A stretch of 63,508 nt of DNA, the filler included, from Atractiella rhizophila (lineage: Eukaryota): assembly GCA_021432655.1 (NCBI GenBank). It is 10 parts of 9 records of this genome, joined end to end, with 100 filler letters (N's around TTAATTAATTAA, not from the genome) between each part and the next. Parts side by side here need not be neighbours in the genome. Positions count along the whole stretch, not along the records: positions 42,088 to 49,167 come from MU272240.1; 9 more parts are not named here. The stretch is one strand, 5' to 3'. A program made the translations under genes and the position numbers. The notes under the pieces are model-generated. The model was not told the DNA's origin. It ran no database searches and was given only the letters and a program-made list of their open reading frames with translations. Positions within the stretch are counted from its first letter, which is position 1. The number at the start of each line of letters is the position of its first letter. Below, piece after piece: positions 3,368 through 59,186 of the stretch.

Positions 3368-3467
3368 NNNNNNNNNNNNNNNNNNNNNNNNNNNNNNNNN
3401 NNNNNNNNNNNTTAATTAATTAANNNNNNNNNNNNNNNNNNNNNNNNNNNNNNNNNNNNNNNNNNNN
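3368..3467. other. Artificial contig spacer (N43-44 + TTAATTAATTAA + N44; stops in six frames); first of nine
   Basis: The same 100-nt spacer also occurs at 5776-5875, 13033-13132, 20289-20388, 27537-27636, 34764-34863, 41988-42087, 49168-49267 and 56347-56446. Confidence 0.98.
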
Positions 3468-4033: not shown

Positions 4034-6986
4034 ACAGTGGCCGTCCGCAACCAATTCTGACTACCTCCCCGCCTATCTCCACAGGGACAGATGATACCGA
4101 ATGTCTAGCGTGAGTGGGGATTGAGTTGCCGATGTGACAAGAGAGGAGTATTACACATCCATCACCAAGACACCGGAGTTTGCATGCCGGCTAACGGGCA
4201 GCTGGGAGATTATTCTTGGTCAGCTTGATACCTTTGGTTTGTTCGCAACTGCCCTTGCTCTGTCTGTTGAGCGTGCTTATAGTGCACGTTTGGGAGTACG
4301 ATAATTTCGCTGGGTTTGACTCTTCCAAGGCCGCTATCCTCCAAGCTGCGGTTCGTCGTCCCTCTGTCTTGTAATCACCTTGTTCACCTTTTACATTAGG
4401 GCCACAAAGAGACATTCCAGCGACGCATCATGCCCTTGCTTGAACACCGCACGTCTCAATTGTGTCAGGAGTTCGCATTTTGGGCATCTTCTCCTCCGAG
4501 AGATTTTGGGGGAATTTATGAAATGCGCACCTACGATCTAGTTCCTGGATCTCTGCTTGAATGGGAGCATGAGTGGTTTGTCTTTGGATTTATGATATTT
4601 TGCTCGAATTGATTATTGACGACAGGCGTCGGGGTCTTGAAGCTAGGAGCCACTTCGTACAACCAGTCGGTGCTTGGTTCTCGCAAGTGGGAAGATTGCA
4701 TCAGGTATATTACTTACCTCTCTTGTGACAGCGATTGACCACTCGCATTTTCTGTTTGTTAGGTCCATCACGTCTGGAATTATGCGTCAATGGAACAGCG
4801 GGATAAGCAGAGGGCTGAGGCATGGAAGATCGATGGGTGGAATGACACAGTCGTCAAGGTAGGCTCTCCTTTGCGCAGTGATAACGAGATAATGTGGTCT
4901 GCAGACTGTCAAGCTGTCGACTAAGATGGAGGCGAGCATCATGCACCCGCTAGATTTCTCCCCGCTGAAGTAGTCCAGCATACAAGGTGGTGTATAAGGA
5001 GCGCTCACAATCGCGAAAGAATATGGTTATTGAATAACTGGAGAGCTGGACAATGTTTGAATCTTGTGTAGATAGTCGTGCTTTGTTGGTGTTCTGCATC
5101 ACAATGACATGTTCTCTCAGCGATCCTACTTCATGCGCAGAATTTCGAAGAATAAGCTCTGTCGTTTCGAAGTTCCTATGTAACGGTAACAATGGAAATG
5201 CATGCCCGAAACCAACGTGCACCTAGCACAAAGGAACGACTGACTATTTACATAACACACAGTTCCTCCAAATGCCGCGTTCAATTTGTCCCACAGTGTC
5301 CCACCGTCTCCTGATTAAAACGAAACGCACTCCAACGACGGTGTAGCTGTTTAGACGCGTTGAAATGGGAAATAGGACACGAGATAGCAGAGGCAGGGGT
5401 CTGCACAGGTGCGTTCTTTCTTCGCAGGATGGATGAGGGTGTGAGATTCTTTTCAAGCCTTGTATCATGTGAGAAAAACGACGAGACGACATATGCAGAA
5501 GAGCCAACAAACAAAGGCATTAGAAAACATACAATACGAATAAGATTGAGCAGAAGCGGCGATGGACAGATGGTATCAACGAGCTCCCTTTGGCAGGGAG
5601 AATAGACAGAGACAGATGCTGCTCCCTTCGATGGGAAATCCACACACAACAAGAATTGCGAATCAGACAAATTCATACAAAGTGGCATATGTTACTTTGA
5701 GAACGACGATCAGTTCAGCAGCCTGTCGAACATGGCGCTACTCCTCCTCCTTCCCGCGACTTCTTCGTCGAAGTCNNNNNNNNNNNNNNNNNNNNNNNNN
5801 NNNNNNNNNNNNNNNNNNNTTAATTAATTAANNNNNNNNNNNNNNNNNNNNNNNNNNNNNNNNNNNNNNNNNNNNATCACAGTCTAATGCCTCGCTGGCT
5901 ACCCATCAAAAGCACACGGCACCAGGCCTGGTAAGTCAGCAGCTGGACAAATGCTTGAATGTTGATGATGAAAACTTGGAAGACAATTGGGGGGGCTAGT
6001 CTTCCATACGAGGTTTTGCCTCTCATTGCCGTAGTGGTGGTCGCATCTACCTTTGGGGTTTATGCAAGCATCAAGCACAGTAAGCTTATTTGAAGATTTC
6101 TCCAAATAACTAGTACCTAACACATTTGCAGTTAAAAGTGATCACGAGCTCAGGCTATCTCATGAGAGTTACACAAATCGACATGACACCATCCTGCCTC
6201 CTAATTGACTAAAAGGGAAAGAGATAGAGCTACTGTTCCGATTTTTCAGGGCTGCGGCCCTTCCTGTTTAGAATGATTCAGATGATTTCAGCACGTAATT
6301 CTAGTTTATATTACAATCCTCATGATACAAGAGCGTTACATGTATTCTCCATGGTTTTACAGCAACATTCAGAGCCACGTAGTGACTGTGCCATGTCATA
6401 GAATATGGAGACTTATCGATCGAGTTCCACTTCCTTCTTTCAAGAAGAAATTGGGAAGAGAATACACGACTAAGATTGTTATTGAGAACGTCGACAAGAT
6501 TCTGCCTATGAGGAAGACCAATCAATTTCTGTCGATGTCGCGCATCCAACTCAGTCAGAGACGTCGTTGGATGCCATTCTCGTTGCCTTAGAATGGTCTC
6601 ACACTTTTCTTTCAATCACCCCAGCACACCGCAGAAGCACTCACTGTGACAAGCAGTAGCATATTTTGCTTCTGCAGGCTCGAGTTTCCCTCGCAGATGT
6701 CGTTAGAACAGAAATTAAACGTGAGTTCTTAAATTCAACTTTTCGCAAGTAATTGGGCAGTGATAACCAGAAGCGAGTTGATTGACGTGGGAAGTGTATA
6801 TAAAAACAATGGGGTCGAGTGCAGGGTCTTCTTCTTCTTCTTGGCGGTTGGTTTACAGAAAAAAAAAATGTAAGCGGATCCGTTTTATCCGCCCAGTGCT
6901 GAAACCTTATGAAAAGGTACCCGGTCCGAAACAAACTGAAAGCGAGTAGACACTAAACACATTACTTTTGAGCAACAAAGAGAACA

Positions 6987-13032: not shown

Positions 13033-13827
13033 NNNNNNNNNNNNNNNNNNNNNNNNNNNNNNNNNNNNNNNNNNNNTTAATTAATTAANNNNNNNNNNNN
13101 NNNNNNNNNNNNNNNNNNNNNNNNNNNNNNNNACGCGTCGTTCTGTCTCCGAGATCTTCAAAGCTTCACACTTGCGCTCTGCAATTCAGCGGCGCTGCAA
13201 ACTCTCACGACTTCGCAACAGAACCGCAAATTGTCAGCATGTCCTGTCCATGTTTTTGGAACGACGTCTGACCTTCAAAAGCAGAGCCCACTGACCAGTT
13301 CCAAATCTCTATCACTCCTTTAAGACAGCCATGGATTTTTGGATCGAACCACCATCCAGAGTGCGCTCTTGCCTGTCTGGCACTACTGCTTCCGGAAATT
13401 GATGTCCCTGGTGCGTTACTTGCTTCCTTGTGGCACCATTACAGTTTAATTGCCTGACCAAGTGCAGTCCCTCTAACATTCTTTGGCCCTTTTGGGCACC
13501 AGCTGAGAGCCTGGCCGAAAGCGTCGACTGGAACATCCCACAGCAGGAACCTTCGTTGACAGTCAATTCAGCCGACACCATTCGTAAGATCAATTCTTCC
13601 GACACTCAATATTACTCAATTACGGCCAATCAATTACAATATAAAGACGAGTGACTGTCATTCGGTTTCGCGTCGTGCGTGTGGTCGTTTGCGGCCGTGT
13701 CAACAACCCAAAGCAAACGCAACAAGGAACGGGTCTTCGACGGTGTTCTTGATCTCCTCTTCTCCCTTCGTCAGATCCCATCGCACAAAAGCACGCTGAT
13801 CCTTCATCTGCTCTCAACCCGCTGGCG

Positions 13828-19472: not shown

Positions 19473-20388
19473 TTTATCATAAAGAAAGCTTCTGCGGAGG
19501 TCAGGTTTAGAGCCGTTAGGGACTGAAGCAGGATTGTGGAGCCTTTATGTAACTGTCGAAGGAGAATCTTTCTCCGGAACAATAACCTTCTCCCCACTTG
19601 CTTGCGAGGCTCGATGGAATGAACAATCATGCTTGTGTGAACATCCTGAGCTCAATATCGGGCAAAACGACCAGTGAGCTTCGTTGAATTATGGAAACAC
19701 CCTAACTCAGGATACGGGTTAATCATTCCGTCATGGTAAACTGTCCTTCGATAGAAAATGAGGGCAGATGTCACTTTCACAGACTATAATTGGGATTCGA
19801 AACGTTCAGGAAAGGAAATGGTCCCGACTTTCTCATCCTCACCTATCTCAGTGTCAAGCGGCCCAAAGAACCTCATTTCTGCATTTTCGGCCCAAGAAAC
19901 GAATAAAACGGCTACAATCGATGGCTAGCACGACATAGGCGAGCCAGCGAGCCAGAAAAGTGACGAGATGAACCCTACAACCGTCAGTCCACATGGGTTC
20001 GATGTCTGTTTGGATTTCCGATTGACAGCACAGGTAGAAGATCGGGATTGATGGTACAGATGGCGATAAACTCCGGAACCCTGATCTCGTGAGACCTTAC
20101 CTGCTCCAATCAGCGATGGGAGAGTACTAACCTGAGTCTACGACCCCACGGAGTCACTTACCTCCACCGACTCTCCTTTGCAACCCACAAATCAGCGGAT
20201 GTAATACCCTCCTCCCAAAGTCGCGGCTATCCCTCAGAACATTCTTCCGGCTCCGACGCTATCCGTCCCTTGTAGTCCTCGTCGAGGGNNNNNNNNNNNN
20301 NNNNNNNNNNNNNNNNNNNNNNNNNNNNNNNNTTAATTAATTAANNNNNNNNNNNNNNNNNNNNNNNNNNNNNNNNNNNNNNNNNNNN

Positions 20389-26785: not shown

Positions 26786-27636
26786 CACGGGGAAAAGGTC
26801 CAGGCTGCCACACGCGCTCAGCTGGTTGTGGTGTGTTTCCTCCAGTCGTTGTAAAACACTGTTGATATTTTTTGTAGGAAAGTCGAAGGAGAAACCAAAT
26901 TTGAGAATGTTGACACGTACTTTCTTATTTATAACGTTATCTTCTAAAAGGAGTAGTTGACTGACTTGTTCGTGGCAATCTTCACACATTAGCTTTAGGC
27001 ATCTACTTGTTCCATCCATCAGATCGCCGAGTTGGTCAAAGCAGCCATAAGTTTCATGCACAAGGACGAGATATATGGGAACTCTCGGAGTTCACGTCAA
27101 CTCACACATCTGCTATGTCTTGAAGATAATCTCTAGTCCTCAGGCTCATAGCTGTTAGATCATGGCCAGCATGTCATAATCGGACCGAGAAAGCCTTTCT
27201 TCGTGGCCGCTCTTTTGCTCATTGACCATGCAAATGATATGGAAGTTTGCTGTCAGAGGTAACAGCGAACTGGCGAAACAACAGAGCATAATGAGCGCAA
27301 GAATAGAGCAGCGGGAGCGAGATATCTCGACCCGCCGAAATCGGATTGAAGAGCGTGCCGTGCGCCGCCATAGGCCTGCCGAGTGTGAGACTCGGATATG
27401 ATGAGGAGACGATATAAAAAGAGCTATGACGCTGTCATACTCTTCACCAATTATTACGAGTGCGAGTGACGAGTGCTGAAGATGGCTTCGCTGAATGATA
27501 CGACGAAAACACTGGTCGAGTCGAAGGAACCAACACNNNNNNNNNNNNNNNNNNNNNNNNNNNNNNNNNNNNNNNNNNNNTTAATTAATTAANNNNNNNN
27601 NNNNNNNNNNNNNNNNNNNNNNNNNNNNNNNNNNNN

Positions 27637-34478: not shown

Positions 34479-34956
34479 ATCGACTCCTCGACCCGACCCG
34501 TGTAATTAATTTATTCCTACATTGCATTTGCATCGCACAATTCATAATTCTACTCCTACTCTCTCATCCTTTATTTATTGTGTCACCTCGTCGAATTTCC
34601 GTTTCAGGTGCTCTTTGGCCCGTTTCCTCTTTCCATGTCCCTTCCGCTTCGAGCTTTCTCCACCATGTGCCCCACCTCTTTGTACCTCTTCCGTCCCTTC
34701 CTGCTCTGCAGGCATGTCTTCCTTCGCCGCCTCCTCCAATGCTCGCTTTGAATAGACAGTCAGNNNNNNNNNNNNNNNNNNNNNNNNNNNNNNNNNNNNN
34801 NNNNNNNTTAATTAATTAANNNNNNNNNNNNNNNNNNNNNNNNNNNNNNNNNNNNNNNNNNNNGAGAAAGCGTTTCAACAGGATCGATGCACGAAATATG
34901 ACTGATGATATGCGAAAATACTGTCAGTTAAACACTCCATCAAGGAAAAGTTATGA

Positions 34957-40028: not shown

Positions 40029-42087
40029 AGAGAACGAAGGACGCCCCCGAAGCGAACCTCTTGCATTCAGCCGGCTTTTTGAGCTAGCGGAGGCGGAGCG
40101 AAGAGTGAGGTCTGTGTATATAAGCACCTTTTCCTTTCAGTTTGGTCGCACACTCCTCAGGCGGTATGGAATTTCAGAGCCCTACGATACCGAAGTTCCC
40201 AGAGGTTTTAGTTGGCAAAGGGGACAAGTGAGGGTTGTTTCGGTGGGTCGGTTCAAACTGCAGTTCCGTTTCTTCGTTTTTGTTCCGCCGCTCTTCAGCA
40301 CTCCAGCGACAAAATCGCAACTGCCAGGGCGTCAACGCAAATAACTCAGATGCAAGTAGATTGTGGAAACTCTTATAGTATTTGACAACAAGTGTTACAG
40401 CAGTTATACTTTTTTTCTATATGGAATAATGCAAGCATTGGCACACTGGTGGTCAAAACAGAATTGCTTCTCCTCGCTCTAGTTGTGCACTCATGAATGT
40501 GTTCCGAGTTGAACAAGCGATCGAAGCCGTGCTCCCAGTCTTCCTTAATAAATTGGAGTTTCATCATTCTCGCTAGAGGACGCGATCAATGGCAGTTGAA
40601 GGATATATATAATGGATTATGAGGCGCCACTTTACTTTCAGTGAAGTTTGGTGAGGGATGACACTGCAAGGTGAAGATAAAGAGCTCTGAAATTCTGTAC
40701 TCTAGGGTCTTTTCGGTATAACGATCCAGCCTGATAGCGAGTCAATCAATGGTTGGAAGGCTTTTAGCGGCTGTCCGCATCCAAACAACTTCAAAGGGCT
40801 TGCGCTTGCGTTGTAAGCAGCAATGTGACGCTTATTTAACTGAACAAAGTCAGCTTTGTGTGGGCCTGGCAATTTCAGCCTCTATTTTGTTGCATCAAAC
40901 TTTCATTTTTGATGGTGAGCTTGTGGTTCATTAATTTCTGTCGCATCCCAGATCTGCTATATTATCGAAAGCGTGAGTGCTTGCTGTTCTAGAAACTGGG
41001 ATTTGACTAATTTAGTGGAATCGACCCACGCGAGCAGATCTCAGCAGATACGTCTGTGCTCAGAAATGCCTAGGTTCAAGCAAGTTGCTTCAGGACTACC
41101 TAGATGGATGCGAGTTGTCAGAACATCTTCCAGAGCTATTACAATGACCTTTGCTTAACATCACACGTGACTTGCTAGAGAAAACTCATGCCCATTTTGC
41201 CAGCTTTCAGGTAAGCGTGGGGGCTGCAACAATATATCATTTCACTGCCATTCAGTAATAATCCTCACACTTAATCGCGAAAGTTCAGATCTTTCAGAGT
41301 GCAGACAGGCACAAGTAGTACTTTCAAGGATCGATATCTGGGAGCACTTCTTGCTCTCCGGCTGAGCAGAAAATATCCTTTCTCCCTTTCATTCTCCCTG
41401 TTCTTCCAGGTGAAACCGATGGGTGCTGCGACGTTTGGGGAACAAACAGCAAAACAGAATTAGGGAACGTGGAGAGGCTCACCTTTTCAAAAGCTTGTTC
41501 GGTGGGGTCCCAGATATCTCATAGAAATGAGCGCCGTGTTTACTGGAGCTTCCTTAGGCTGTGATGTGTGTGTGATAGACTCAGGTTGCGCCTGGATTCC
41601 TCCTGCATCCACCCTTTCCCGCATTGCTGGGTCCAGGTTGACGGTCCGTGTCGGCCGCTCACAGGCCCGTTTCATGTTACTTCCAGGTCTCAAATATTCA
41701 AACGATGCACCTGCTTTGAAGCTGTCCATTCAATTTACCGGAAATTGGCCGTTCTCTGTCTCCCGAGATTGGCAATTTCACCGACAGAAACCTGGGGAGT
41801 GCAAGAAGAAGATCGCGGGGTCATCCATAAAAGGCTTTGCTGCCTTCTTCAGCAGGCGCGACTCTCTCGACGCCCATCAACAAGGTGAGTCTCGCTCGGT
41901 ATTCGGTAAACAACCTAGCCAACGTAATTTTGAAACAGGAAAGTCGACTACCATGGCTTCCGATTCTGTTAGGTCCCCGTCATTGACNNNNNNNNNNNNN
42001 NNNNNNNNNNNNNNNNNNNNNNNNNNNNNNNTTAATTAATTAANNNNNNNNNNNNNNNNNNNNNNNNNNNNNNNNNNNNNNNNNNNN

Positions 42088-43050
42088 AAGTCCGAATCAT
42101 TAGGGATCGGGTTCTCCTGCCTCTTTTCCTTCTTGACTGTTTGACAATCAATCAGGCTTTGAGGAAGAATACGAATCAAAGGACGAACAAGGCACAATTT
42201 CGCCGTTCACGACTTTAGTGGGGAAGTCAGAGTCGTTAGGAATGGGGTTCTCCTGCCTCTTCTCTTTGATGACTGTGTATCAACCAGTCAGTACTGGAGC
42301 AAGACAGACTTTTGAGACGACGAACAAGGCACGATCTCTCCATTCACTACTTTCGTAGGAAAGTCCGAATCATTAGGGATCGGGTTCTCCTGCCTCTTCT
42401 CCTTCTTGACTGTTTATGAAGGGGTTAGGTTTTGAGAAGAACACGAGTCCAAAGACGAACAAGGCACAATCTCTCCGTTCACTACTTTTGTAGGAAAGTC
42501 CGAATCATTAGGGATCGGGTTCTCCTGTCTCTTTTCCTTCTTGACTATCCATCATCCAACAGTCAGTTAGCGAGAGAGAGGCAGAGACGTAGAAAGACCA
42601 ACAAGGTACGATTTCTCCATTCACTACTTTTGTAGGAAAGTCGGAATCATTTGGGATCGGATTCTCCTGCCTCTTTTCCTTCTTGACTATTCATCCACTG
42701 CCAGTCAGTGTGCGACGAAGTGGTAAGCATTGGAAACACGAACAAGGCACGATTTCTCCATTCACTACTTTTGTAGGAAAGTCAGAGTCATTAGGAATCG
42801 GATTCTCCTGTCTCTCTTCCAACACAACGTCCGAATCAACAATCGCCACCCTTCGAACCTTCGTCCTCCTGCCCCTCTTCGCCTTCTTCCCGGACGACCC
42901 AAAGGCAGTGATGACGCCGTTGACGGATTTGGTGGCGAAGTCGCTGTCGTTCGGGAGCGGATTCAGTCCTTGTTCCTGGGGTTGGGGTACGGGGAGGGAG
43001 AAGATTTGGAGTGGGAGGAGAGCGAGGGGGAGGAGGAGTTGGATGTGCAT
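42088..43050 (-). CDS. Secreted Kex2-processed repeat-peptide precursor (KEP), one repeat per exon, 3'-truncated by contig end
   Basis: Exons 43050-42744, 42686-42603, 42544-42461, 42409-42326, 42272-42189 and 42136-<42088; GT-AG introns of 57, 58, 51, 53 and 52 nt. Signal peptide MHIQLLLPLALLPLQIFS; repeat QENPIPNDSDFPTKVVNGEIVPF(K/I)KEKR. Confidence 0.9.
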
Positions 43051-44096
43051 GTTGAGCAGATTGCAGATTAGTTTGTGGAAGGAAGAATGTAGATGGTGAA
43101 AGTCAAGTCGAAGGATGAAGACCTGCTCGGGCGAAAGATGAAGTTCACTGAACGATTGGAGAGAAGCAAAGGAATGTGTTCTGTCAAAGAACGTCAAGAG
43201 GTCTACTCGACAGAGCTGGAGGAAGACAAGAAGCGCAGAGGGAGTGGGCAGAATGAAAGGATGTATATATATTATTCAATGCTTGACCGGGAATCAATTC
43301 ATCATGCTGAGCCTTCGGTGAATACGATGCATGCTCCAGTGGTTCGATGCGTTGCGAAGACGTGAGCTGCGTTTCAGCAATTCATTCTTTCAGTTCCAGG
43401 ACATCATTGCCACGTGCCCAAACACGTCTATGCTGTCCGTACTGCCTGCGTACCTCAATGGTCAGGTGACGTGTGAAGCTGCCACTCTGAAGCGCGAAGT
43501 ACCTTTTTCTCTTTTTCTCCGTGCTATCCACAACAACTGAGCTAATGGCTGCATATCCCGAGCAAGCCGACTCGTGAAACTCGGGTTATCTCGTTAAATC
43601 GTTTGAACGGCACGGGACGCAGCTAGAAAATCAAAAGCAAACAGCAAGGTGAATCGGTACCAACAGCTCGGACTATTACCAGGGGTCCATCGCAATTCTA
43701 GTAGTTGTAACGACTGGTGACAAAAGGATATGTTGATGTGACAGACGTCCCGACTTTCATCCACCTAAGGTTTGCAAAAGCGAAAGCAAAAGCAATGTTC
43801 TGCTAATAAATTTACTTGTTGTCATGTTTTCATATTCCTGCGTGCACACTTCCATCGTTGCACGAAGCACTAACAACTTTGCAAATGTGAACAGATACTC
43901 GAGATGAATTGAAGGTATATTATTTTTTAAGGTCGAAAATTGGAGCTATGTTGATTAGGATCACAAGTGTGCTACAGTACAAGTTTTTTCTGATGAATAC
44001 AATCGGTTACAATATGCTTTTGATAAAGAGACTCGAAATCTATCATAAACTGCAAATGCGACGAATAGACCGAAAGGATCACAATGTACACAATGT

Positions 44097-46139
44097 CTAC
44101 GCCTGAGCGTACTTGCTCCACTTCCTAATCTCAGCACCCTTCTTATAGAAGAAGAACAAGATGGGAATCATGATTGCGCTCAATCCCGCCAGGAGGGAAG
44201 AGCCGCCTCCAACTCCGAGAGTCTTGAAGAGGGCGTGGCCGAAGAGAGGGAAAGCTGCGCCACCGCTCGACCTGAACAAGTCGTTTCCGGCGAGTAGGGA
44301 AGCGGCGTAAAGGGGATAGGACATGGGTAGGTAGACGATACAGGATTGGAAGAGAAGGAAGATGCCGGGGATGTAGAGGGAGGCGGAGGCGGCGATGATG
44401 GGACCCATCCAGTGGACTGAGGGACGAGAGAGCCAACCTATTATCAAATGATCGTTAGCACTTCGTCCTACGCATGAAAATGTGGGAAGACATACCAAAA
44501 AGAAGTAGAGACACTGGAATAAACAAACTTGCGACAAGGGCAACTTGTAGCCTCTCTTCAGGCACGAGAACTCCTGTGCGACGGAACTTGGGTTCGACGT
44601 GATAGTATTGGAAGGCGGCATATCCAGCGAAGGCTAGGAAACAACCGACGGCGATGCCGATGAATGGGAGTCCTTGAAGGCCTAGATTGAAGCCGTAGAT
44701 CTCTCCAAAGACGATTGGGAAGGCTTCAAACCTGCGGAATAATCAGTACTGTGATTCACGAGAGGACACTAGCACCATACCATAAGTAGAAAATGGAATA
44801 AGCCAATGCGATATACACGTTGATGAACAGCACCGCAGGCTCCAGCGCGAGCTGGAAAGGTCTCACGAGGGCTTCGTACAGCACATCCTTCGTTGTGGTG
44901 TTAGCCTGATCGATCTCGCTCTTCGACCTGAGGTTGTTGTTGCCAGTGATCTTTCTCAGCCTCTCGGCGCGCTTAAGGAGGATAGTCGCTGCATTCGTCT
45001 CCGGGAGTATGAAAGACAGAACGAGGAGCGCGAATCCGGAGATCATGAGGAGTTCGTAGAGTGGCCAGCGCCATCCAGCGTTCATAGCCGCGAAACCGCT
45101 GATGACTGGTCCCAAAACCTTTATTTGCCTTGATCAGCATTATTCGAGCAGAGACGTAGCGAGAAAGACGTACAGGTCCAAGGACAGCGCCGACGCTCCA
45201 CAGACCAATCACGTAAGGCATCTTCATCGGTGCCCAGATATCTGCCAAACTCGCTCCTCCCGTCGCAAGAGCTGGTGAGCCAACGAAACCAGTGAGGAAG
45301 CGCATGGCCATGAGGACGCTGTAGTTCGAGGTCGTGACAGCGGGAATCTGGAGGATGACGAAGAGGAAGAGTGTTGCCATGTAGATCGGGTTGCGACCAA
45401 TGGCTGGGACTTCCGACAGCGGTGAAAGAATCATCGGACCTATTCTATCGGTGTAAGGATAATCACACTCTACCTAACGCATAATACGTACCAATACCGT
45501 ATCCGAGGACGAAGAGAGAGAGGCCCAAGATCGCCTTCGTTTGCGAGACATGAAAGTACTCCATGACTCCCGGGATAGATGATGAGCTAATGCATGCCAT
45601 AAGCCACCTATTTCGCAATTGAAGTAGGAGAGAGAGACGCACTAGATTGCACTACCAATGTATACCGAAAATGTGAGCAACATGATGGCCGCAGTCACCA
45701 CGCTCTTCTTCCTGAAGCTCCAATTTTGGGGGTTCTCCTGATCGTCGTCTGCGTACCATCCCACCAAAAAGACATCCTCCTCAGCAACCTTCTCCCCTTC
45801 CTTCCCCTTCTCCAGGTCGCCTACTAAAGTCTCAGTCCTCGATACTGGAAGCTTCTCCTTGCTCGCTGTCCGCGACAGTGCACGGGCGGTCTCGTCCACA
45901 AGGGTATCGTTCCGCTCGATCTCGAGCGTCTTCTTTACCGCTAGTCTTTCCGGGCGAGATGGGGCTTCCGAAACGAGGGTATCTATAGATGCATTATTCG
46001 AAGCTCGGATTGGCCGTTTTTGCAGGAATTTTGAGGGGATTTCGAAGTCTCGTCGCTCTTCGGGATAAGGAAGAAACCGCCCTTTGGAAGCTGCGTGAAT
46101 AAACTGTCCAATTATTGATTCTCGTAGTAGTGCAGACAT
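44097..46139 (-). CDS. MFS multidrug transporter, DHA1 family (Flr1/Caf5/Mdr1-like), multi-exon
   Basis: [104 protein letters not shown]. Confidence 0.93.
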
Positions 46140-48149
46140 TATTGCTTGGGGTTAATCTAAAGTAGAGTCTATACGTCGATGGTTGTTGGCTTAGAATGTG
46201 AGTGGGATTGACGCTCACCTCTCCCTCTTGTAGACCCTTTTAAACGCTCCCTCCGCCTCCACATCCTGAATGAAAAATCTCATAATCCACTAACAATTTT
46301 CTTACCGCCGACGCCCTCGCCGCGCTGAGCCACAAAATTCTCGCTTTGTTGCTGACTGAAAGTGGAGTAATCAATGTCAGAGTTCAACAATCCGGCCTTC
46401 CAGAACACTTATGACGCCAGAGTGAAACCGTCTTCGGCGTCGGCGTTGATTACACCTTCCTCCACCTTCCAGAACTTCTACAATGACGTAACGTTAAGTC
46501 GGTGTTAGCTCCTGCTCCACCACCGCAGGAATAAAGGAAGAGACGGTCTTTCAGCAACTTGGCTTTTTAGCGCGTTATGACCACAGCGATCGTTATGCGA
46601 CAGGCATCTGGACATTCTTGCGGACATTTTTCTTCACCATGATGCGGAGGGTTGTGTTGGACAGTGGATTAAGGTGGCCAGTACGTATATCCGTGATGGA
46701 AAAAGGATGAAAGGAAAGGGATCATTCTAGATAGTGATTTAAAGCTGGAGGACAAGCCAATTTGTCGATACCTTATAAAAGTTGTGTCTGAGTGCAGCAA
46801 TTTCGAAGTAAAGTCAGCATGCGAGGTTCTTGTTGCTGATTTGGCAAAACTCAATCTGGTTAAAGCTTCATCGCGAGTAGCTGGAAACATGACTTGATAA
46901 GTTCAATAAATCTAAATCGGTGCAGGCACACTACCGTCTTATCAATTCCTGGATGCCATTGCTTCTCGTTTCACTTCATTGCAATCAACTGGGACCTTTA
47001 ACGAACGATAGTTGGGAATTATGAAGTTCTCATCGGGTTTTAAAGGACTCTAAACGGCATTGTTGGCATCTTTGAGCGGTGGACTAAGCATTACTTTCTG
47101 TCTTCATACTTCTCCCTCAGTTTCACTCTCTTCAGCTTCAGTTTTCATCCCCTACATCGCTTTCCGGAACCCGAAGATCAGTAGGATCCCTAAAACATTG
47201 TGAATCAAGTGCTGATATTGAAGTAAAACTACTGTCTGCATTGGTCCAGGACGGTAGTCTCCATAATAATTCATGGCATCTTCCACTCGTACCATCTGTC
47301 GAGTTCCTAAACGAAGATATCCAGCAATAAAGGTGGACGCGGACTGTCATATGTGAGGTGTCGACTGTTCTGAAAACGTGCCATCGCAGCATAATCTTCA
47401 TCAAATTCTCGAACTCATTTCTGGCACTTCACCAGCATAACTTGACGCAAATGTCGGGATTGACTGGTACCACGTTGTAGAACTCTGGAGAGTCACGAAT
47501 ACGTTGAAGGACTTCTTCCCTGGTAGGCATTTCGGTAATCTCTATATTTTTTTTGCGTGGAAGAAACCGACAAAAGGCGTCCGCTACCAGCTGTGAGAAG
47601 CTTAGAGCATGGGAAATATCAGGCCAGGTCGGGAGGCTCATATATTCTATCACAGCGAAGCCAATAAGGAGGAGGATCCTCTGGGTCGAACCAGTGCCTC
47701 TAATTAACTGGATTTGCTTGAAGGTCTCTGCTCACTCGGTATCAATTAATAAAGGCCAGGATCAGTTGGTACATTGCTAAGCGTTGCATACTTGCTTCGT
47801 CAATAAGAAGCTTTAAGAGCTTCAGCTCACCTTGTCGGCACAAATACTAGCTGATTAGCCAGCCGCAGCCTCCCGAGTATTATTTCATAATATTTAGTCC
47901 CAAGGCCATAGCGTTCTTTTTGCTACCGCCTTCGAGCGGATTCAAGCGGTCGAGGTCGTCGCTGGTTATCATGACGAAAGGACAGTTGTGAAATGTGAAA
48001 ATCAATCCGAAATGCCATCCGTTCTCTTCGCCACTGGCTGAAGGCAAGAATCAACAGGGATAATAGTAAAAGAAGGGAGGGCCCATTTACATTATACAGC
48101 ACAATAGCTTCACAACAGTTGCGTAGTGTACTCTCTGCTCAATAAATGG

Positions 48150-48836
48150 TCAATCGTAATGCTTCCTCCCCCACTCTTCTGTTCCGTTAGCTTCTGCTCG
48201 CAAATTCACTTTCATGATCCACTCCTTCACATGCACATCTTCCAGTCCAACCCCTCCCAGTTCCAAGATCGGTTTTGGGAGTTCTTTCTCATCGAACGAA
48301 CCTGCCTCCAGGAACAGAGAGGAAGCCGAAGACGCCTCGGAAGAGTAGTAAGGGGAAGAGTAGAAAGTGGCCTCTGAACTCGACAATGGTAAGGAAAAGT
48401 TGCGTCCTTCATCTGTTGGGCGAGGATTATAGTGGAGGAGAGCAGGTGGCAGAGACGGAGAACAGGTGCAGAGTGAGTCTAGATCCAAGGTCGTGTTGGC
48501 GTCGTCATCATCTCCGAGCCTTTTCGCCTTCGCCGTTGGCGTAGAGGCAGCGGAAAAGTCATTGACTTCGTGCTCTGTGATAGAAAGATGCCTAGTGGTT
48601 ATCCTCGGCGTTTCCCTCGAATTCGAAGACACAATAGGTGACGAGTTGCTTCTTTTCTGCTTCGGACGTTTCGACTGCGGCGTTGCCCCCAACAACTCGC
48701 CCTTGTCCCAGCGCTCCCACTCCCAGCTCAGTTCACCGCGCTCCGAGAACGCCTGGAGGGCAGCGAACTTTTTCTTCGCCTGCAAACCGGCCGTCATTAC
48801 CTCGTTGAGGCCAGTGGAGTTCGTCATCATCTTCAA
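48150..48836 (-). CDS. Hypothetical protein, 3' exon (Ser-rich), unidentified
   Basis: 228-aa ORF with coding-like composition; probably continues upstream to the contig end at 49167. No recognisable domain. Confidence 0.4.
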   Translation of the reverse strand: MKMMTNSTGLNEVMTAGLQAKKKFAALQAFSERGELSWEWERWDKGELLGATPQSKRPKQKRSNSSPIVSSNSRETPRITTRHLSITEHEVNDFSAASTPTAKAKRLGDDDDANTTLDLDSLCTCSPSLPPALLHYNPRPTDEGRNFSLPLSSSEATFYSSPYYSSEASSASSLFLEAGSFDEKELPKPILELGGVGLEDVHVKEWIMKVNLRAEANGTEEWGRKHYD

Positions 48837-51379
48837 TAACTAACTCAGCTCCACCGAACTTGATGCCAGAGGAAGCAGCGCACCTTGATCCAATAATTAA
48901 CAATATAAGGTATCTTTGTCTTTTTCTAGCTCTCTAAGCAGGTACAACAGCCGCTTCGTCCAGTTGAAGAACGAATTGTGCACAATGTTCCCTCGGGCGG
49001 GCGGACGCGTCTGGGAAGGGCTTCTAATTTGTCCACAATCGATCAGGAGCTACAAAATCATGTTTAAGGAGGAGAGTAAGAGGATAATGATGGGGTTGAA
49101 TAGAGCTGGAGTTGCTGGACCAGGGAAAACTGATTGGTTGTTCGGAGCCAGAACAACATTGCGTTGCNNNNNNNNNNNNNNNNNNNNNNNNNNNNNNNNN
49201 NNNNNNNNNNNTTAATTAATTAANNNNNNNNNNNNNNNNNNNNNNNNNNNNNNNNNNNNNNNNNNNNTCTAGAAGCAGACTGTGTGAGGATCTTGACAAC
49301 CTTATACTCTGCTGCCTTTGACCTGTTCTAAGTCAGAATATCATAACTAATTCTGTGTGCTGCTCCATACCTCAAATCCCTGCATAACCAGAACGTCGAT
49401 GTAGCCCAAAACCTACCTTTGAAACGATCTGATAATGTGTATTTAAGACTCAGCCAATCCGTGCTGGGTAGCATTGGGGAGGATGATAAGAAGGAAGTGT
49501 TTCTTCGTCAAGCAGAGTGGTCTCTGTATTACTTGGAAACCAGGTGTCAGGAATGCTCGAGGATGTATCATACCCGGTGCACCATAGGAAGCGTTGGCTT
49601 TAGAATTAAGGAGTTCAACGAGGAACTGAGGGAGAATCGTCGCATGATGGCAGCAAGAGCCTGAGACGAGAAGAGTGCAGGGGATCAAATCGAAACCCTA
49701 CTCAGCTGCCCAGCAAACTACAGTTGGTATATCAGAGTCATTACATCAATGATGTCCCTGTCAACAAACCATGCCAAGCGGAAGGCGTAATGTGTTCTGT
49801 CTTCTAAGTTGGACTGCATATGAATCCTTTTCATACTATAGTATTCCTTCGGGTTGCAGTGTTTGAAGCTGTTGAAGCCTCAAGGCTGCAAAATCTCCAG
49901 CTTTGAAATTTTCCAGTTTTAAGCTTCCAAAACTTGACGCTTTTCGTCCCAGCCGTGAAAGAAGAACGGTAAGTTGTGTAAGGTGGCTACATCAAATTTT
50001 AGGCAACCTTCCTTCCGCTGGCACCAACTCTGGGTTCTCGAAGCACAACAACCATCAAGAAGAAAAGCATGGCTAGAGCGTTCAGAGCCACCCCCTTGCA
50101 AAGAGGCAGTTCATCTAGATCGGTGGTACTGGCCCACCACACATTCAGGCCACGGATGGGGGTGAGTGGGTCCCGTTCGCCACGAAGTTTGTATCCACAT
50201 TTCAGACCAAGTGCGTAAAATATTTCACAGGAAGTGCCCAAATGCGAAGATGGCGATGTGCAGGATGAGCGCATTGTTGCTATCGGTTGCCAGTAAATAG
50301 CGCCCACTCTCCTTACCATCTAAGGAGGTATTTTTAAAACAACCTGAGCGGCCTAGTCACCTGACTCAGTCGTGAAAACATTTTTTTTTTTGTGTTTCAA
50401 ATAGTCTTTGCTGTACACAGTTTGAAAGGCGCCTACACGCGTATTCTGGTGGTATACTTAGAATTTTGAAAGGGTTATTGTGGGCGGTGATGTAAGCGCT
50501 CAAAAGTACAGGTGTCTGTCATGGTCAAAACCCGTCATGCTTTTATCTAAGGAAGTGAACCAGCTAACCATGGAACCAGGTCGTGACAACCTCGGTGTAT
50601 CTATTGTGACAAGTGATGATCGATAACAAGTCCAGAATCACGGTGCGGAAACCATCGAAGTTGGGTCAAAGTCAGTTAGCTGCAAGGGAGAGTATTGTGA
50701 AATTCGAGCGTCCAGCTAGAGAATTTCTGGGAGCTCCCCATCTCTCTGGAGAGCCGCGTACTAGAGTGTATTTGCAATGTGGACTGTCTTCCCCTGCTTG
50801 ATCTATCCCTCAGAGTCCTCAGCTCAGAGTGGTACTAGTAAGCGTTGGGCAGTGGAGATCACGTGAATCTCACCCAGCAGCAAAGGGAGAGAAAGATTTA
50901 GTTAGGGCTGGTAGCAAGTAACAATGGAATCAGAGCACAAATCAGAAATCCGAGAAAAGTGTGCCAAACTTGCTGAGCTCAAAGAGGCACGGGCACATTG
51001 AGAAGCAGAGCGACGGGGCTGCAGCCAGTGGCGGTGATGGGTAGGGATGAGCAACGGGGCGGTTACGTGATGGGTATGGGCGCTTCCATAAGTCTCTTCA
51101 CATCTAACAAATGGCGGGTGGGTGTGTCAAGGTGGTTTGCAAAGCTGGGACGCGCGTTGATGTGACGGGTAACAGGTCTAGGACGGGTTTCCACCTCACA
51201 TTATGCAATAAAAATGTTGTCTTTGTGACCTAAAGGTTGGATAGCTAGTGTAAGTTAAGATAAAAGTGTTCTTAGCCACAAAAAAGAACCAAAGAAAAGA
51301 ATAGGATATTTTTGCAATGAAACATTCAAACCGCTTTTAGCCCATCCATGTTCATTTAGCCATCTCAGCCAGAGCTACC

Positions 51380-56346: not shown

Positions 56347-59186
56347 NNNNNNNNNNNNNNNNNNNNNNNNNNNNNNNNNNNNNNNNNNNNTTAATTAATT
56401 AANNNNNNNNNNNNNNNNNNNNNNNNNNNNNNNNNNNNNNNNNNNNTACTGGGGGCAAGTTCGCAAATTGTCTGTCATCACAAACAAAGAGGTGCTCTGG
56501 CACCTTGTTTCAGTTTTAACATGTATTGTGGGAGACAAGAGTGATTGAAGGCAGAAATCTGTCAAGGAAGGGTGGATTGAATACATATTGAGCCAGACAG
56601 GATTCAAAATTAATATCGGGTGAAGAGGAAGTCTTAAATCCAATAATCAATAATCGTTGATTGTCGGTTCGCAGCCTTACTTATGTCATCAGTGCCATTC
56701 GTGGGCAGGAGGAGAACTAACCTTGGGTCTCATAGCAAACTTGCAGCCAGTCTGCGCACGGAGTGCCATCTCCACAAAGTTAGGTTCAGTGGAAGTCTGG
56801 TGTACCACCTCTGTTTCGAAATCTGGAGCCTAGAAGAAGAAAAGCATATGTTGTGCTGAATCCTATTGTTGGAGGTACCGATTGATCCATTGTCGTGAGA
56901 TGACAAGCTCCATGCTTATGCTTGGGTGATGACGGCACGATGCCTGCTGAGGGTTGAGATTCATTGCTTAAAGATACGGCAAATCAATACTTGCCCAATT
57001 ATATATGTCTTCGAGATGAAAATGAGAACTACCACCATGTAAGTCATGTCTCGGTCAAAGGGTGCCACATACCTGCAAAATGATAAGCCATATCTTGTGA
57101 AGCCAGGAAGAGGATGAGTTCGAGGATTTGAAGGATTGATGTGAGCAGGTTGGCTCCGATGCCAAATTGGATTAAATGCTTCAGCGATATTTACACTCCC
57201 TACACCTACAATAACCAAGCAAGAAACCTACACACAATATCAGGTCTGTCGTTGCCTGAAGTTATATCAACACGGACCAGACATGGTAGAAGGAGACCGA
57301 CAAGAAGTCAGAGCTTCTCAGATGCTTCTTGAACGCCAGCATGAAAAAGAATGCAAAATGGCAATCGACAAAGGCGTATCCACCAAGCTGCAAGGAAGCA
57401 CCTGTTTCCATCTCACCAAAGTGATTTCAAAAACAAAATAAAGACATGCTAGCAATCGTGGTAGGGATCCATTGGCCGTCTTTGTTTCTTTTTAGACAGT
57501 CCGATCACGCTGCAATGAAAACATGAACACGCACTGGGCCTGGTAATGAAAATGTAACCAGCTTTGTGTCTTCTGAGTTGACTGAATGGGAAGAGAGAAA
57601 TGCTTCACTAAAGAGCGCGGCCACAACATGTGTAATAGACAGCGCGACAACAACGGCGAGACTGATAGACCAGAAGAGGATGTGCTTTGAGCTTTCTCGC
57701 TTCCTCAAATCATGGATTCGGCGAGCATGCAGGATGTGGCTTGTGAAGATGGATCAGAGGGGTAGTCAAGAGTCTAATAAGTGGTGAGGGGGGTATAGAA
57801 TGATGAGAGCAAGACGAACAGGACTATGATCGAGTGATCGGGCCGACTGATCAGCATCACTCAGTCTCCAGTGTATAACAATAATTACAAGGGAACCGAA
57901 CACAAAACCAGGAACGTCATGAAGGAATCAATCGAACCAAATAACCTTCACCATCCTGTCCATATGTCAAAGTTAATCCAATAATGAGTCCATGAAGGGG
58001 AAGTTATGAACGAGTCGGTCACATCGAGTAGTAGCAGGGCAGAATGTTCGAAGGCTTTGAGTTTGAGTTTGTTGTTCTGTTAGAACAGTGTCAGCATCGT
58101 TTCGATTAGTGTGAGAAGTAGACGGAGCACTTGTATGTTGTGGAAACGACGAAGAATTTTGAAACAATAATAAAACTAGTGTTCCAAAGAATGAGGAACA
58201 GCAAAGAGATGAAGGAGGGGAGACCTGAGCAAGTCCTCTTCCCCACAGACTAAAGGAGAGGACAACTGCAATGGCAATAGGCCATATGATTTCTCCATTG
58301 CACACCGGCGTGACCATGAGGAACTCGGTGGTTGTAGAACTGACCATCCTGGACGATATCCTACTGAAGTGTAACTGATGAGCAAGCGAACAGGGGTAAT
58401 TTTCCGCCTATTATGACCTGTCCTTTTTATGCCTTAGAAGTGGTTCGCATCTGGTTCCCGCCAGCCTTACTGAGTGAAGAAGAAGCAATCAGCAGCAGCA
58501 GTTGCAGAGTTGTGCCAACGGCTCTCTGTAGCAATTCTAAGAGCACACTCGCGCGTGACGCTGTTGCCCGAGAGTAGAGTTCGGTTGATTTTGTCGGGCA
58601 AGAGCAGACTTCGGTCTGCTTCACTCACACTGCTCGCCTATTTCTAGTACTCTTTCAAGAAGTTAAGCATGATCCCAACTCAGCAAGCGAAGAACCTGAA
58701 ACTCATCAGTTCACTCGACATTCGACATAGAATTCTGCTTGACTTGAAATGGCGCGAGAAACAAGCGATTGAGCACCATGCAGAGGTGAGGAACTGAGAT
58801 TGTAAGAAGCTGAACGTGACCGAACTTTAATCTCGATGTGAACTCTGCTCTGCCACGACAGAAGTGACAGAACTCTACTCTGGCGCGCCATAAACTGCTT
58901 CTGAACCATTAAAAAGAGCGAAAATCTAAAGTAAATCTGCTCACTCAAATCAATGACGCTCTCTAAACTGGGACCGTCATCCAAGACACCTTGTATCCAC
59001 TTCAGCGTGGCTTTATGTTCTGGTTCCTCAAATGTATAAGAGCCTGTGAGATATCCAGAGTGATCGAAAATTGAGCTCCGGTTGTGTCTTTGGACGAATC
59101 CTCTTCCAGCGTTAATCACCGACCTACCCAATCATGGTCACAATCACATCAAGGCCATCGATCCACCTACAGTCTCAACGGCCAGA

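Follow-up and report, generated by a model that had tools for sequence, protein, structure and literature searches.

The DNA analysed here (the window, 63,508 nucleotides) comes from Atractiella rhizophila, a basidiomycete of the Pucciniomycotina, class Atractiellomycetes, and consists of contig parts joined end to end with filler. A repeat gene was located on the minus strand, at the low end of the contig that occupies positions 42088-49167; its ATG lies at 43050 and it runs into the contig end at 42088. That position is the true end of the contig, because a linker (N and TTAATTAATTAA) adjoins it at 42087. Tandem Repeats Finder described a single array at 42088-42820, with a period of 142, 5.3 copies, 78% matches and a score of 720. 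We consider it probable (about 0.8) that the locus holds an expressed A. rhizophila gene for a Kex2-processed repeat protein (KEP) similar to KEP 497993 of Coprinopsis cinerea, and that a signal-like secreted peptide is made from it. The contig carries the 5′ four-fifths or so of this expressed gene.

The exon-intron structure was read from the sequence and from assembled contigs of four runs, of which X1, X6 and X12 are recorded as RNA and X2 is only guessed to be RNA. X6 is a root metatranscriptome library, and X1 and X12 are from soil; soil and root metatranscriptome libraries are among the public runs in which one quarter to one third of the words sampled were present. The coding part of exon 1 (42744-43050, 307 nt) comprised a signal-like peptide (43050-42997), the dipeptides LP-VP-QP (42996-42979), a divergent unit 1 with GSSGKKAKR (42978-42874), the 21-residue linker GRRTKVRRVAIVDSDVVLEER (42873-42811), and the beginning of the first canonical unit, which reaches base 1 of its Phe codon (42810-42744). 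Its donor at 42744 was backed by a joint 42409/42744 and by a loose contig end at 42744, and it was joined to a repeat-exon start in X6 and X2. Intron 1 (42687-42743, 57 nt, phase 1) reads GTTCGT...CTGAC...AG and brings in an in-frame stop if retained; its donor was seen in RNA contigs, and its acceptor border at 42686 coincided with the end of a piece of X1 record 2. The same record covered exon 2 (42603-42686, 84 nt), which encodes (F)KKEKR and a peptide unit. Exons 3 (42461-42544) and 4 (42326-42409), both of 84 nt and of the same content, were read from the sequence and from RNA contigs. Exon 5 (42189-42272, 84 nt) encodes (F)IKEKR and a peptide unit; X6 record 15 spanned it completely, flanked by exon 4 and one further repeat exon. 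Of exon 6, the first 49 nt (42088-42136), encoding (F)KKEKRQENPIPNDSD, precede the cut by the contig end.

The joints in the RNA contigs fell exactly on the borders of introns 2, 3 and 4. Intron 2 (42545-42602, GTTGGT...CTAACTGAC...AG) was bridged by the joint 42544/42603 in X1, which skips 58 nt, and intron 3 (42410-42460, GTTCGT...CTAAC...AG) by the joint 42409/42461 in X1, which skips 51 nt. Intron 4 (42273-42325, GTTCGT...CTGAC...AG) was bridged by the joint 42272/42326 in X6 and X2, with 53 nt skipped. All three have CT..AC ends on the plus strand, which correspond to GT..AG on the gene strand. Loose contig ends at 42744, 42603, 42544 and 42409 were read as the ends of neighbouring exons. 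Intron 5 (42137-42188, 52 nt, GTTCGT...CTGAT...AG) lies beyond the exon-5 donor at 42189, which was joined to a repeat-exon start in X6 and X12 (a step that goes back 356); the joined exon was placed on the near-identical exon 3 with 7-8 differences. Because this donor is joined in both runs, intron 5 is spliced and the gene continues past the contig. Positions 42088-42175 had no RNA-contig cover, the letters of the sixth exon having fallen on the near-identical exon 3. The gene is expressed and spliced.

All five introns start with GTTCGT or GTTGGT, contain a CTRAY-like branch site and end in AG. They are all in phase 1, because each exon ends with T and the next starts with TC, splitting the Phe codon. 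Retention of an intron brings an in-frame stop in four of the five cases, and intron 2 shifts the frame. Since the repeat exons are symmetric, phase-1 exons, duplication or loss of a unit changes the copy number and leaves the frame intact. The unit motif had seven matches in the window, all within the repeat gene.

At the 5′ end, the RNA contigs stopped at 43209 (X1), 43200 (X6), 43216 (X12) and 43214 (X2), and above 43231 there was no RNA-contig cover in any of the four runs. The loose letters at 43214 and 43216 are, we take it, sequencing-adaptor letters. The transcript starts near 43216, and the 5′ untranslated region (minus strand) spans 43051-43216, the contig ends lying within 43200-43216. 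A TATA-like element, TAATATATATAC, was read directly on the minus strand at 43262-43274, some 50 nt upstream of the 5′ ends of the RNA, and may serve as a promoter element.

A contig with the joint 42409/42744, which skips 334, was considered as a case of exon skipping. Its short side has 20 letters and lies one base off the start of exon 2, and the contig has six other differences; a strain variant explains it equally well, and we did not accept it as proof of skipping. Single-base differences in RNA contigs were found at 42775, 42793, 42961, 42979, 42988 and 43051, and X12 and X2 shared a 1-nt deletion at 43158 in the 5′ untranslated region. The differences among the RNA contigs look like strain variants of the same species in the soil and root samples. 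A loose end of an X12 contig at 42466 was read by hand over 27 letters, in which the sixth unit continues ...VPF, SKR, QVP. This suggests, as a lead only and from one contig with a depth of 5.6 and 7 differences, that beyond the sixth canonical unit both spacer and sequence become different, possibly giving another C-terminal peptide. One of the Coprinopsis peptides described below also starts with QVP.

The spliced product begins with the hydrophobic MHIQLLLPLALLPLQIFS, followed by LPVPQP, the divergent unit QEQGLNPLPNDSDFATKSVNGVITAF-GSSGKKAKR and the linker GRRTKVRRVAIVDSDVVLEER. Five complete units of 28 residues come next, each consisting of QENPIPNDSDFPTKVVNGEIVPF and KKEKR (IKEKR once), and a sixth stops after QENPIPNDSD at the contig end. 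KR-Q occurs at all five internal junctions, while the first canonical unit is preceded by EER-Q; because of this EER it would be released at a single Arg and not at a dibasic site. The N-terminal hydrophobic stretch IQLLLPLALLPLQIF, which follows M-H, aligns with the canonical signal peptides of the relatives described below, and on the strength of its hydrophobicity and this alignment the precursor may be targeted to the endoplasmic reticulum (ER). In the methods of Umemura 2020 (PMC7329392), a KEP is defined by a signal peptide and at least three tandem repeats of at least 8 residues between KR, KK, RK or RR, with no repeat above 100 residues. Here we found five complete, KR-ended units of 28 residues, a cut sixth unit, and a divergent unit 1 ending in KKAKR. 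Pfam gave no family for the precursor, and a profile search of the Protein Data Bank (PDB) returned 0 matches at E ≤ 1. Sub-threshold or repeat-summed Pfam matches among the relatives (DUF7330; DUF2188, for which no single stretch passed) were set aside as noise.

Much of this had been anticipated in an earlier note made from the DNA alone. Its gene structure with five GT-AG introns was borne out on the minus strand and is backed by the RNA-contig joints, and the Phe codon that it saw split T|TC at every junction was confirmed in all five introns. The LP-VP-QP dipeptides and the divergent first unit are present in the spliced product, and its count of at least six copies with the last one cut agrees with five complete units and a sixth ending at the contig end. 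The KEP architecture that it proposed is likewise there, as a signal-like N-terminus and KR-bounded tandem repeats. The 21-residue linker, and the position of the first canonical unit after EER and not KR, were absent from it. The note had also called the gene hidden. In a protein search with exon 1, the one match in 277 candidates was BT69DRAFT_37826, a 199-residue hypothetical protein of A. rhizophila with 100% identity; a model had thus been deposited already, and what stands of the claim is that the 3′ end of that model is wrong. The 199-residue model is one canonical unit short of what the contig encodes, has no IKEKR spacer, and terminates within intron 5 with CSSFDSYSSSKPD and a stop. 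No combination of whole exons was found to reproduce it. A deletion of one 137-nt period would account for it, and GT..AG ends occur at none of the 89 equivalent cut positions. Since RNA contigs are joined at 42189, the C-terminus of the model is an artefact of the contig end.

The differences between the repeat units are almost entirely silent. Among the five 84-nt units there were 21 variable columns, 20 of them at codon position 3, and the binomial chance of at least 20 of 21 changes at one codon position is about 4e-9 if the positions are equally likely. Pairwise comparison gave 97 synonymous and 8 non-synonymous differences, all 8 arising from the single K-to-I change in a spacer. The units are 80-93% identical in DNA and identical in their 23-residue core, and the introns are 45-73% identical. 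The third-position bias therefore points to selection on the peptide: strong purifying selection acts on the residues that make up the unit.

Relatives were sought with the deposited protein (P0001) as a single query among proteins of 109-349 residues, with 8000 scored candidates. Phmmer returned two matches, one of them P0004 (226 residues, E 3.4e-11, 44% identity over 54% of the query). A profile of P0001 and P0004 brought 25 proteins at E ≤ 0.01 among the 8000; they come mostly from contigs of about 1 kb, and one is named, from Tricholoma matsutake. All 23 new proteins carried 2-7 units of the form IPAE.AVKS.NG.IVPY between dibasic sites (98 units by pattern), with the unit consensus DQQIPAEIAVKSDNGVIVPY, and those with their N-terminus present begin with a signal-like stretch. 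Because this two-protein profile contained the Atractiella protein, an independent hidden Markov model (HMM) was built from 81 distinct units of the 23 relatives, without Atractiella. It gave 16.1 bits for the canonical unit of Atractiella and 17.3 bits for its unit 1; in 20,000 composition-preserving shuffles of each, none reached the observed score, and the best were 14.1 bits (canonical) and 12.9 bits (unit 1). Against 1973 six-frame open reading frames (ORFs) of the window, the five best hits of this HMM were all in the repeat gene (E 6e-6 to 0.055), and the next had an E of 3.

BLASTP aligned P0001 with P0016 at E 5e-12 (42% identity over 101 residues), with VVLEERQ facing VVVEERQ before the first unit. 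The word VEERQ occurs in 5 of the 23 relatives (P0016, P0018-P0021). In the wider form V-(V/L)-EERQ, next to the first canonical unit, these five share it with Atractiella, where it belongs to the linker at 42811-42873, and in all of them the first unit would therefore be freed at a single Arg. The KRQ junction, with Gln at the pyroglutamate position, occurs in most relatives. Two of the relatives, P0026 and P0025, resemble unspliced genomic read-through. In P0026, a copy of the unit in a shifted frame occurs in the stretches between the in-frame units, and every in-frame unit comes after letters that would correspond to a CTGAC branch site and an AG in the DNA. The pattern suggests a layout of one unit per exon in other species too, with the intron falling behind KRQ and not within the aromatic codon. 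A scan of metagenome contigs gave 186 pattern stretches, of which one (L001) passed tblastn; it reads like an ordinary protein without repeats, sharing only KEKRQENP, and was judged a chance match.

One characterised member of this group is KEP 497993 of C. cinerea (PMC9769878, Microbiol Spectr 2022). Its expression in Pichia yielded pyro-QIPAELPTKSINGNIEPYKV together with forms trimmed at the C-terminus. In C. cinerea itself, synthetic standards confirmed pyro-QIPAELPTKSINGNIEPY and the form with a terminal K, mainly from premature fruiting-body caps, while pyro-QVPVDEPA was detected in addition, in supernatant and mycelium; the kep 497993 knockout lacked all three (PMC9769878). The same paper describes cleavage after a single Arg for this protein and at least 13 homologs in agaricomycetes (PMC9769878). 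KEP 497993 has a signal peptide and then, like the Atractiella protein behind its signal-like N-terminus, tandem units bounded by dibasic sites, with Gln starting the units after KR. Comparison by eye of the peptide printed in PMC9769878, Q-IPAE-LPTKSINGNIEPY, with the Atractiella unit QENPIPNDSDFPTKVVNGEIVPF showed IP, an acidic pair, PTK, NG, I, P and an aromatic end in common. The Coprinopsis unit fits the consensus of the relatives by eye, and P0004-P0027, including the T. matsutake protein, have the same unit type as Coprinopsis and match the Atractiella unit through the independent HMM. At the level of the unit, these comparisons show homology between the Atractiella repeat and the repeats of a family of basidiomycete KEPs to which KEP 497993 belongs.

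The two sides also differ. KEP 497993 and its reported homologs are from Agaricomycetes, and Atractiella belongs to the Pucciniomycotina. The Atractiella unit ends in Phe and not Tyr (Phe is also found in 2 of the 23 relatives, P0012 and P0013), and its spacer is KKEKR, whereas the KEP 497993 type has one residue and KR. In Atractiella, X-Pro dipeptides link the signal-like peptide to the first unit.

The earlier note did not recognise the peptide core and offered it as a candidate new system. This view did not hold, as the core falls in the Q..IPAE.AVKS.NG.IVPY family of basidiomycete KEPs, of which KEP 497993 has been characterised by peptidomics and knockout. What is new here is the member from the Pucciniomycotina, the corrected gene model, the phase-1 cassette with one peptide per exon, and the strength of the purifying selection. 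A string search of the literature library with four typical unit words gave no match, and one with the Coprinopsis peptide string gave none beyond PMC9769878. Atractiella was absent from the text and the examined supplement tables of two large KEP surveys, the full supplements of which may be larger; as control terms, Puccinia was present in both supplements and Ustilago in the one tried. Judged by title or abstract, none of the papers matched in a further string search deals with KEP gene structure.

Other precursors follow a comparable logic. MF-alpha1 and the ascomycete alpha-type precursors combine an ER signal, Kex2 cleavage at KR, Kex1, removal of X-Ala or X-Pro by Ste13, and multiple copies (PMC6339444), while basidiomycetes mate via lipopeptide a-type pheromones (PMC6339444). 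In a feature search of a protein atlas, the MF_alpha cluster was among the nearest, with scores of 0.81-0.86, all below 0.9, and is taken as a lead only. In contrast to the alpha-factor precursors, MF_alpha and MF_alpha_N were not listed in Pfam for the exon-1 protein (E ≤ 0.1), nor for P0001 and 11 relatives (E ≤ 1). The X-Pro dipeptides occur once in Atractiella, after the signal-like peptide, and not after each KR. Alpha-factor has 13 residues, and the Atractiella peptide is about twice as long. The ustiloxin-type (dikaritin) precursor UstA has a signal peptide and likewise many KR-separated repeats (PMC7329392); dikaritin cores are short and contain Tyr, unlike the Atractiella unit. Ustilago maydis Rep1 is another basidiomycete KEP, cut by Kex2 into many similar peptides (PMC7329392).

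By analogy with the yeast alpha-factor pathway and with the peptidomics of the Coprinopsis relative, we propose the following processing. The N-terminal ~18 residues would direct the precursor into the ER, and a Kex2-type protease would cleave behind KR and also behind the lone Arg of EER. The basic tail would then be trimmed by a Kex1-type carboxypeptidase, leaving at most KKE. A Ste13-type dipeptidyl aminopeptidase would remove LP, VP and QP stepwise from unit 1, which would consequently start with Gln like the other units. The exposed N-terminal Gln would cyclise to pyroglutamate; this had been raised as a possibility in the earlier note and is likely, given the pyroglutamate of the Coprinopsis peptides (PMC9769878). 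Processing is predicted to yield a single divergent peptide plus pyroGlu-ENPIPNDSDFPTKVVNGEIVPF in six or more copies, with as much as KKE retained at the C-terminus. Each would be released outside the hypha, probably with a short NG-turn hairpin and possibly with an N-glycan on NDS. The hairpin had been guessed earlier from VVNG/EIV. An AlphaFold2 model from a 19-sequence alignment (without P0011, P0014, P0022, P0023, P0025 and P0026, which have long 5′ extensions or apparent genomic read-through) placed TKVV, an NG turn and EIVP in each canonical unit, with strands at 93-96/99-102 and at the matching positions of every later unit. The 10-residue blocks with hairpins had a mean pLDDT of 71-79. 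The model, of modest confidence, agrees with the guess as weak evidence.

Several observations weigh against the reading of the locus as an expressed KEP gene related to KEP 497993, or against a signalling role for its product. The assembled contigs show that the spliced form exists, and not its expression level or strand, and DNA may be present in RNA libraries. The N-terminus is Pro-rich, with His as the only possible positive residue. When the exon-1 protein was compared with 1.84 billion representatives, the three matches at E ≤ 0.001 were the protein itself, P0002 and P0003. P0002 (810 residues) is made of a repeat that recurs in several frames (words such as SERQSQPIPVDTDWF), with an E of 7e-13 at the linker-unit junction, and was judged a translated DNA repeat; P0003 is a different, Arg-rich repeat protein, judged unrelated on inspection. 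The pairwise match of P0001 with the T. matsutake protein is weak (E 7e-5, 24% identity). The Atractiella unit has two extra residues (PNDSDF vs PAEI) and an NDS sequon unseen in the relatives, and its spacer is longer than in the aligned relatives. The pro-region RDV.VLGVR.IP, present in most of the 18 aligned relatives, is absent; where they have it, Atractiella has the divergent peptide unit. The pro-region may not be defining, as Tricholoma P0024 fits it poorly. Peptides have been detected only for the Coprinopsis relative, and Atractiella processing is argued by analogy. The overall confidence of the AlphaFold2 model is low (mean pLDDT 59.1, pTM 0.17). As to function, the kep 497993 knockout grew and fruited normally, and synthetic peptides did not inhibit five bacterial strains (PMC9769878). 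Because the knockout had no phenotype and the synthetic peptides no antibacterial activity, nothing positive supports signalling.

Could the repeat protein simply stay intact, secreted or retained, with KR incidental in a charged spacer? The restriction of peptide detection to the Coprinopsis relative would fit, as would a spacer that is longer and more charged than the one residue and KR of the relatives. This is very unlikely, because every one of the five complete units keeps KR at the spacer end with Gln next to it, against a divergence of 7-20% at synonymous sites, and the KR-Q junction recurs in most relatives. Furthermore, processing at the Coprinopsis junctions has been demonstrated in the native host and in Pichia (PMC9769878), and AlphaFold2 gave no global fold for the protein. 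A precursor of a ribosomally made peptide with post-translational modifications (RiPP), of ustiloxin/dikaritin type or of a new class, with a core tailored by enzymes encoded nearby past the contig end, seems to us very unlikely. The ustiloxin type also combines a signal peptide with KR-separated repeats (PMC7329392), the contig ends on the 3′ side of the gene so that half the neighbourhood lies beyond, and a transporter gene of the major facilitator superfamily (MFS) lies directly upstream on the same strand (MFS_1 37.4 bits, cut-off 33.4). On the other hand, dikaritins cyclise via Tyr (PMC7329392) and the unit, of 23-26 residues, lacks Tyr, Cys and Trp. Dikaritin precursor genes have DUF3328 genes near them, on average about 3 genes away (PMC7329392). 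The RiPP option and the DUF3328/UstYa, tyrosinase or peptidase neighbours raised in the earlier note were not sustained: among 31 stop-to-stop ORFs of at least 70 residues on the 7-kb contig (7, of which 6 are neighbours, and 24), MFS_1 was the only match, and no DUF3328, tyrosinase, methyltransferase or peptidase family was found. The Coprinopsis peptides, moreover, are linear and were matched to synthetic standards, with pyroglutamate the only modification named for them in PMC9769878.

Readings that accept the processing differ in what the peptides do. Kex2-cut hairpin peptides might assemble on the hyphal surface as a wall-bound structural repeat protein of the Rep1 type, serving hydrophobicity or attachment; Rep1 peptides remain on the wall. 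The precursor architecture is the same, Rep1 being cited as a KEP (PMC7329392), the predicted β-hairpin in each unit could favour self-assembly, and the long C. cinerea peptides were found mainly in premature caps and not in culture supernatant (PMC9769878). Nevertheless, VV and IVPF aside, the unit has an acidic and polar character (D, E, N, S, K), and the Coprinopsis knockout had normal mycelium and fruiting bodies (PMC9769878), which leaves this role quite unlikely. We regard it as unlikely, too, that the peptides are plant-directed effectors acting in the root apoplast on a plant receptor or defence component. A. rhizophila is an endophyte of Populus roots, which counts for such a role, and it is mentioned in rhizobiome papers; contigs of the spliced form occurred in the root library X6 as well as in the soil libraries X1 and X12, and in PMC9769878 a function directed at the biotic environment is suggested. 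However, presence in a root library means that the fungus was present, and not that the gene was induced in planta. The family also occurs in the coprophilous saprotroph C. cinerea, in cultivated wood-decay mushrooms and in ectomycorrhizal Tricholoma, and the unit motif is conserved across subphyla, unlike host-specific effectors. Conservation this broad across lifestyles speaks against a host-specific effector and in favour of a conserved target, and we infer, with low confidence, a conserved extracellular basidiomycete peptide that acts on such a target as a self- or community signal and is not a fast-evolving host-specific effector. More tentatively, and with considerable doubt, the unit may be a form of an ancient basidiomycete peptide that predates the split of Pucciniomycotina and Agaricomycotina, a hormone-like signal with a conserved receptor. 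Purifying selection would then stem from the conserved receptor of this secreted signal, made in the rhizosphere and in roots, and gain, loss or skipping of the phase-1 exon cassettes would tune the peptide dose.

The remainder of the contig carries, on the minus strand, the multi-exon MFS transporter gene at about 44097-46151, in which MFS_1 matched with the above score at 44973-45473 and with 27.6 bits at 44756-45133, and a 229-residue Ser-rich open frame at 48150-48839 that had no Pfam match. Nine filler linkers of the form N44-TTAATTAATTAA-N44, with stops in all six frames, separate the parts of the window, at 3368-3467, 5776-5875, 13033-13132, 20289-20388, 27537-27636, 34764-34863, 41988-42087, 49168-49267 and 56347-56446. 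From 5876 onward the parts follow in descending size (7157, 7156, 7148, 7127, 7124, 7080 and 7079 nt), and features close to these linkers are truncated where a contig stops.

KEPs are widespread in fungal genomes, but to our knowledge the peptide product is known for very few of them, and a function for almost none outside mating. The Atractiella gene extends one of the few KEP families that have mass-spectrometric evidence, in this case from mushrooms, to a root endophyte of the Pucciniomycotina. Because genes with one repeat per exon can be mis-modelled or truncated in draft assemblies, KEP surveys based on proteomes may under-count them. The exon-intron cassette is a clean example of how the copy number of a peptide can change without a break of the frame. 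The breadth of conservation argues for a conserved target, and A. rhizophila provides a second, distant species in which a phenotype may be sought.

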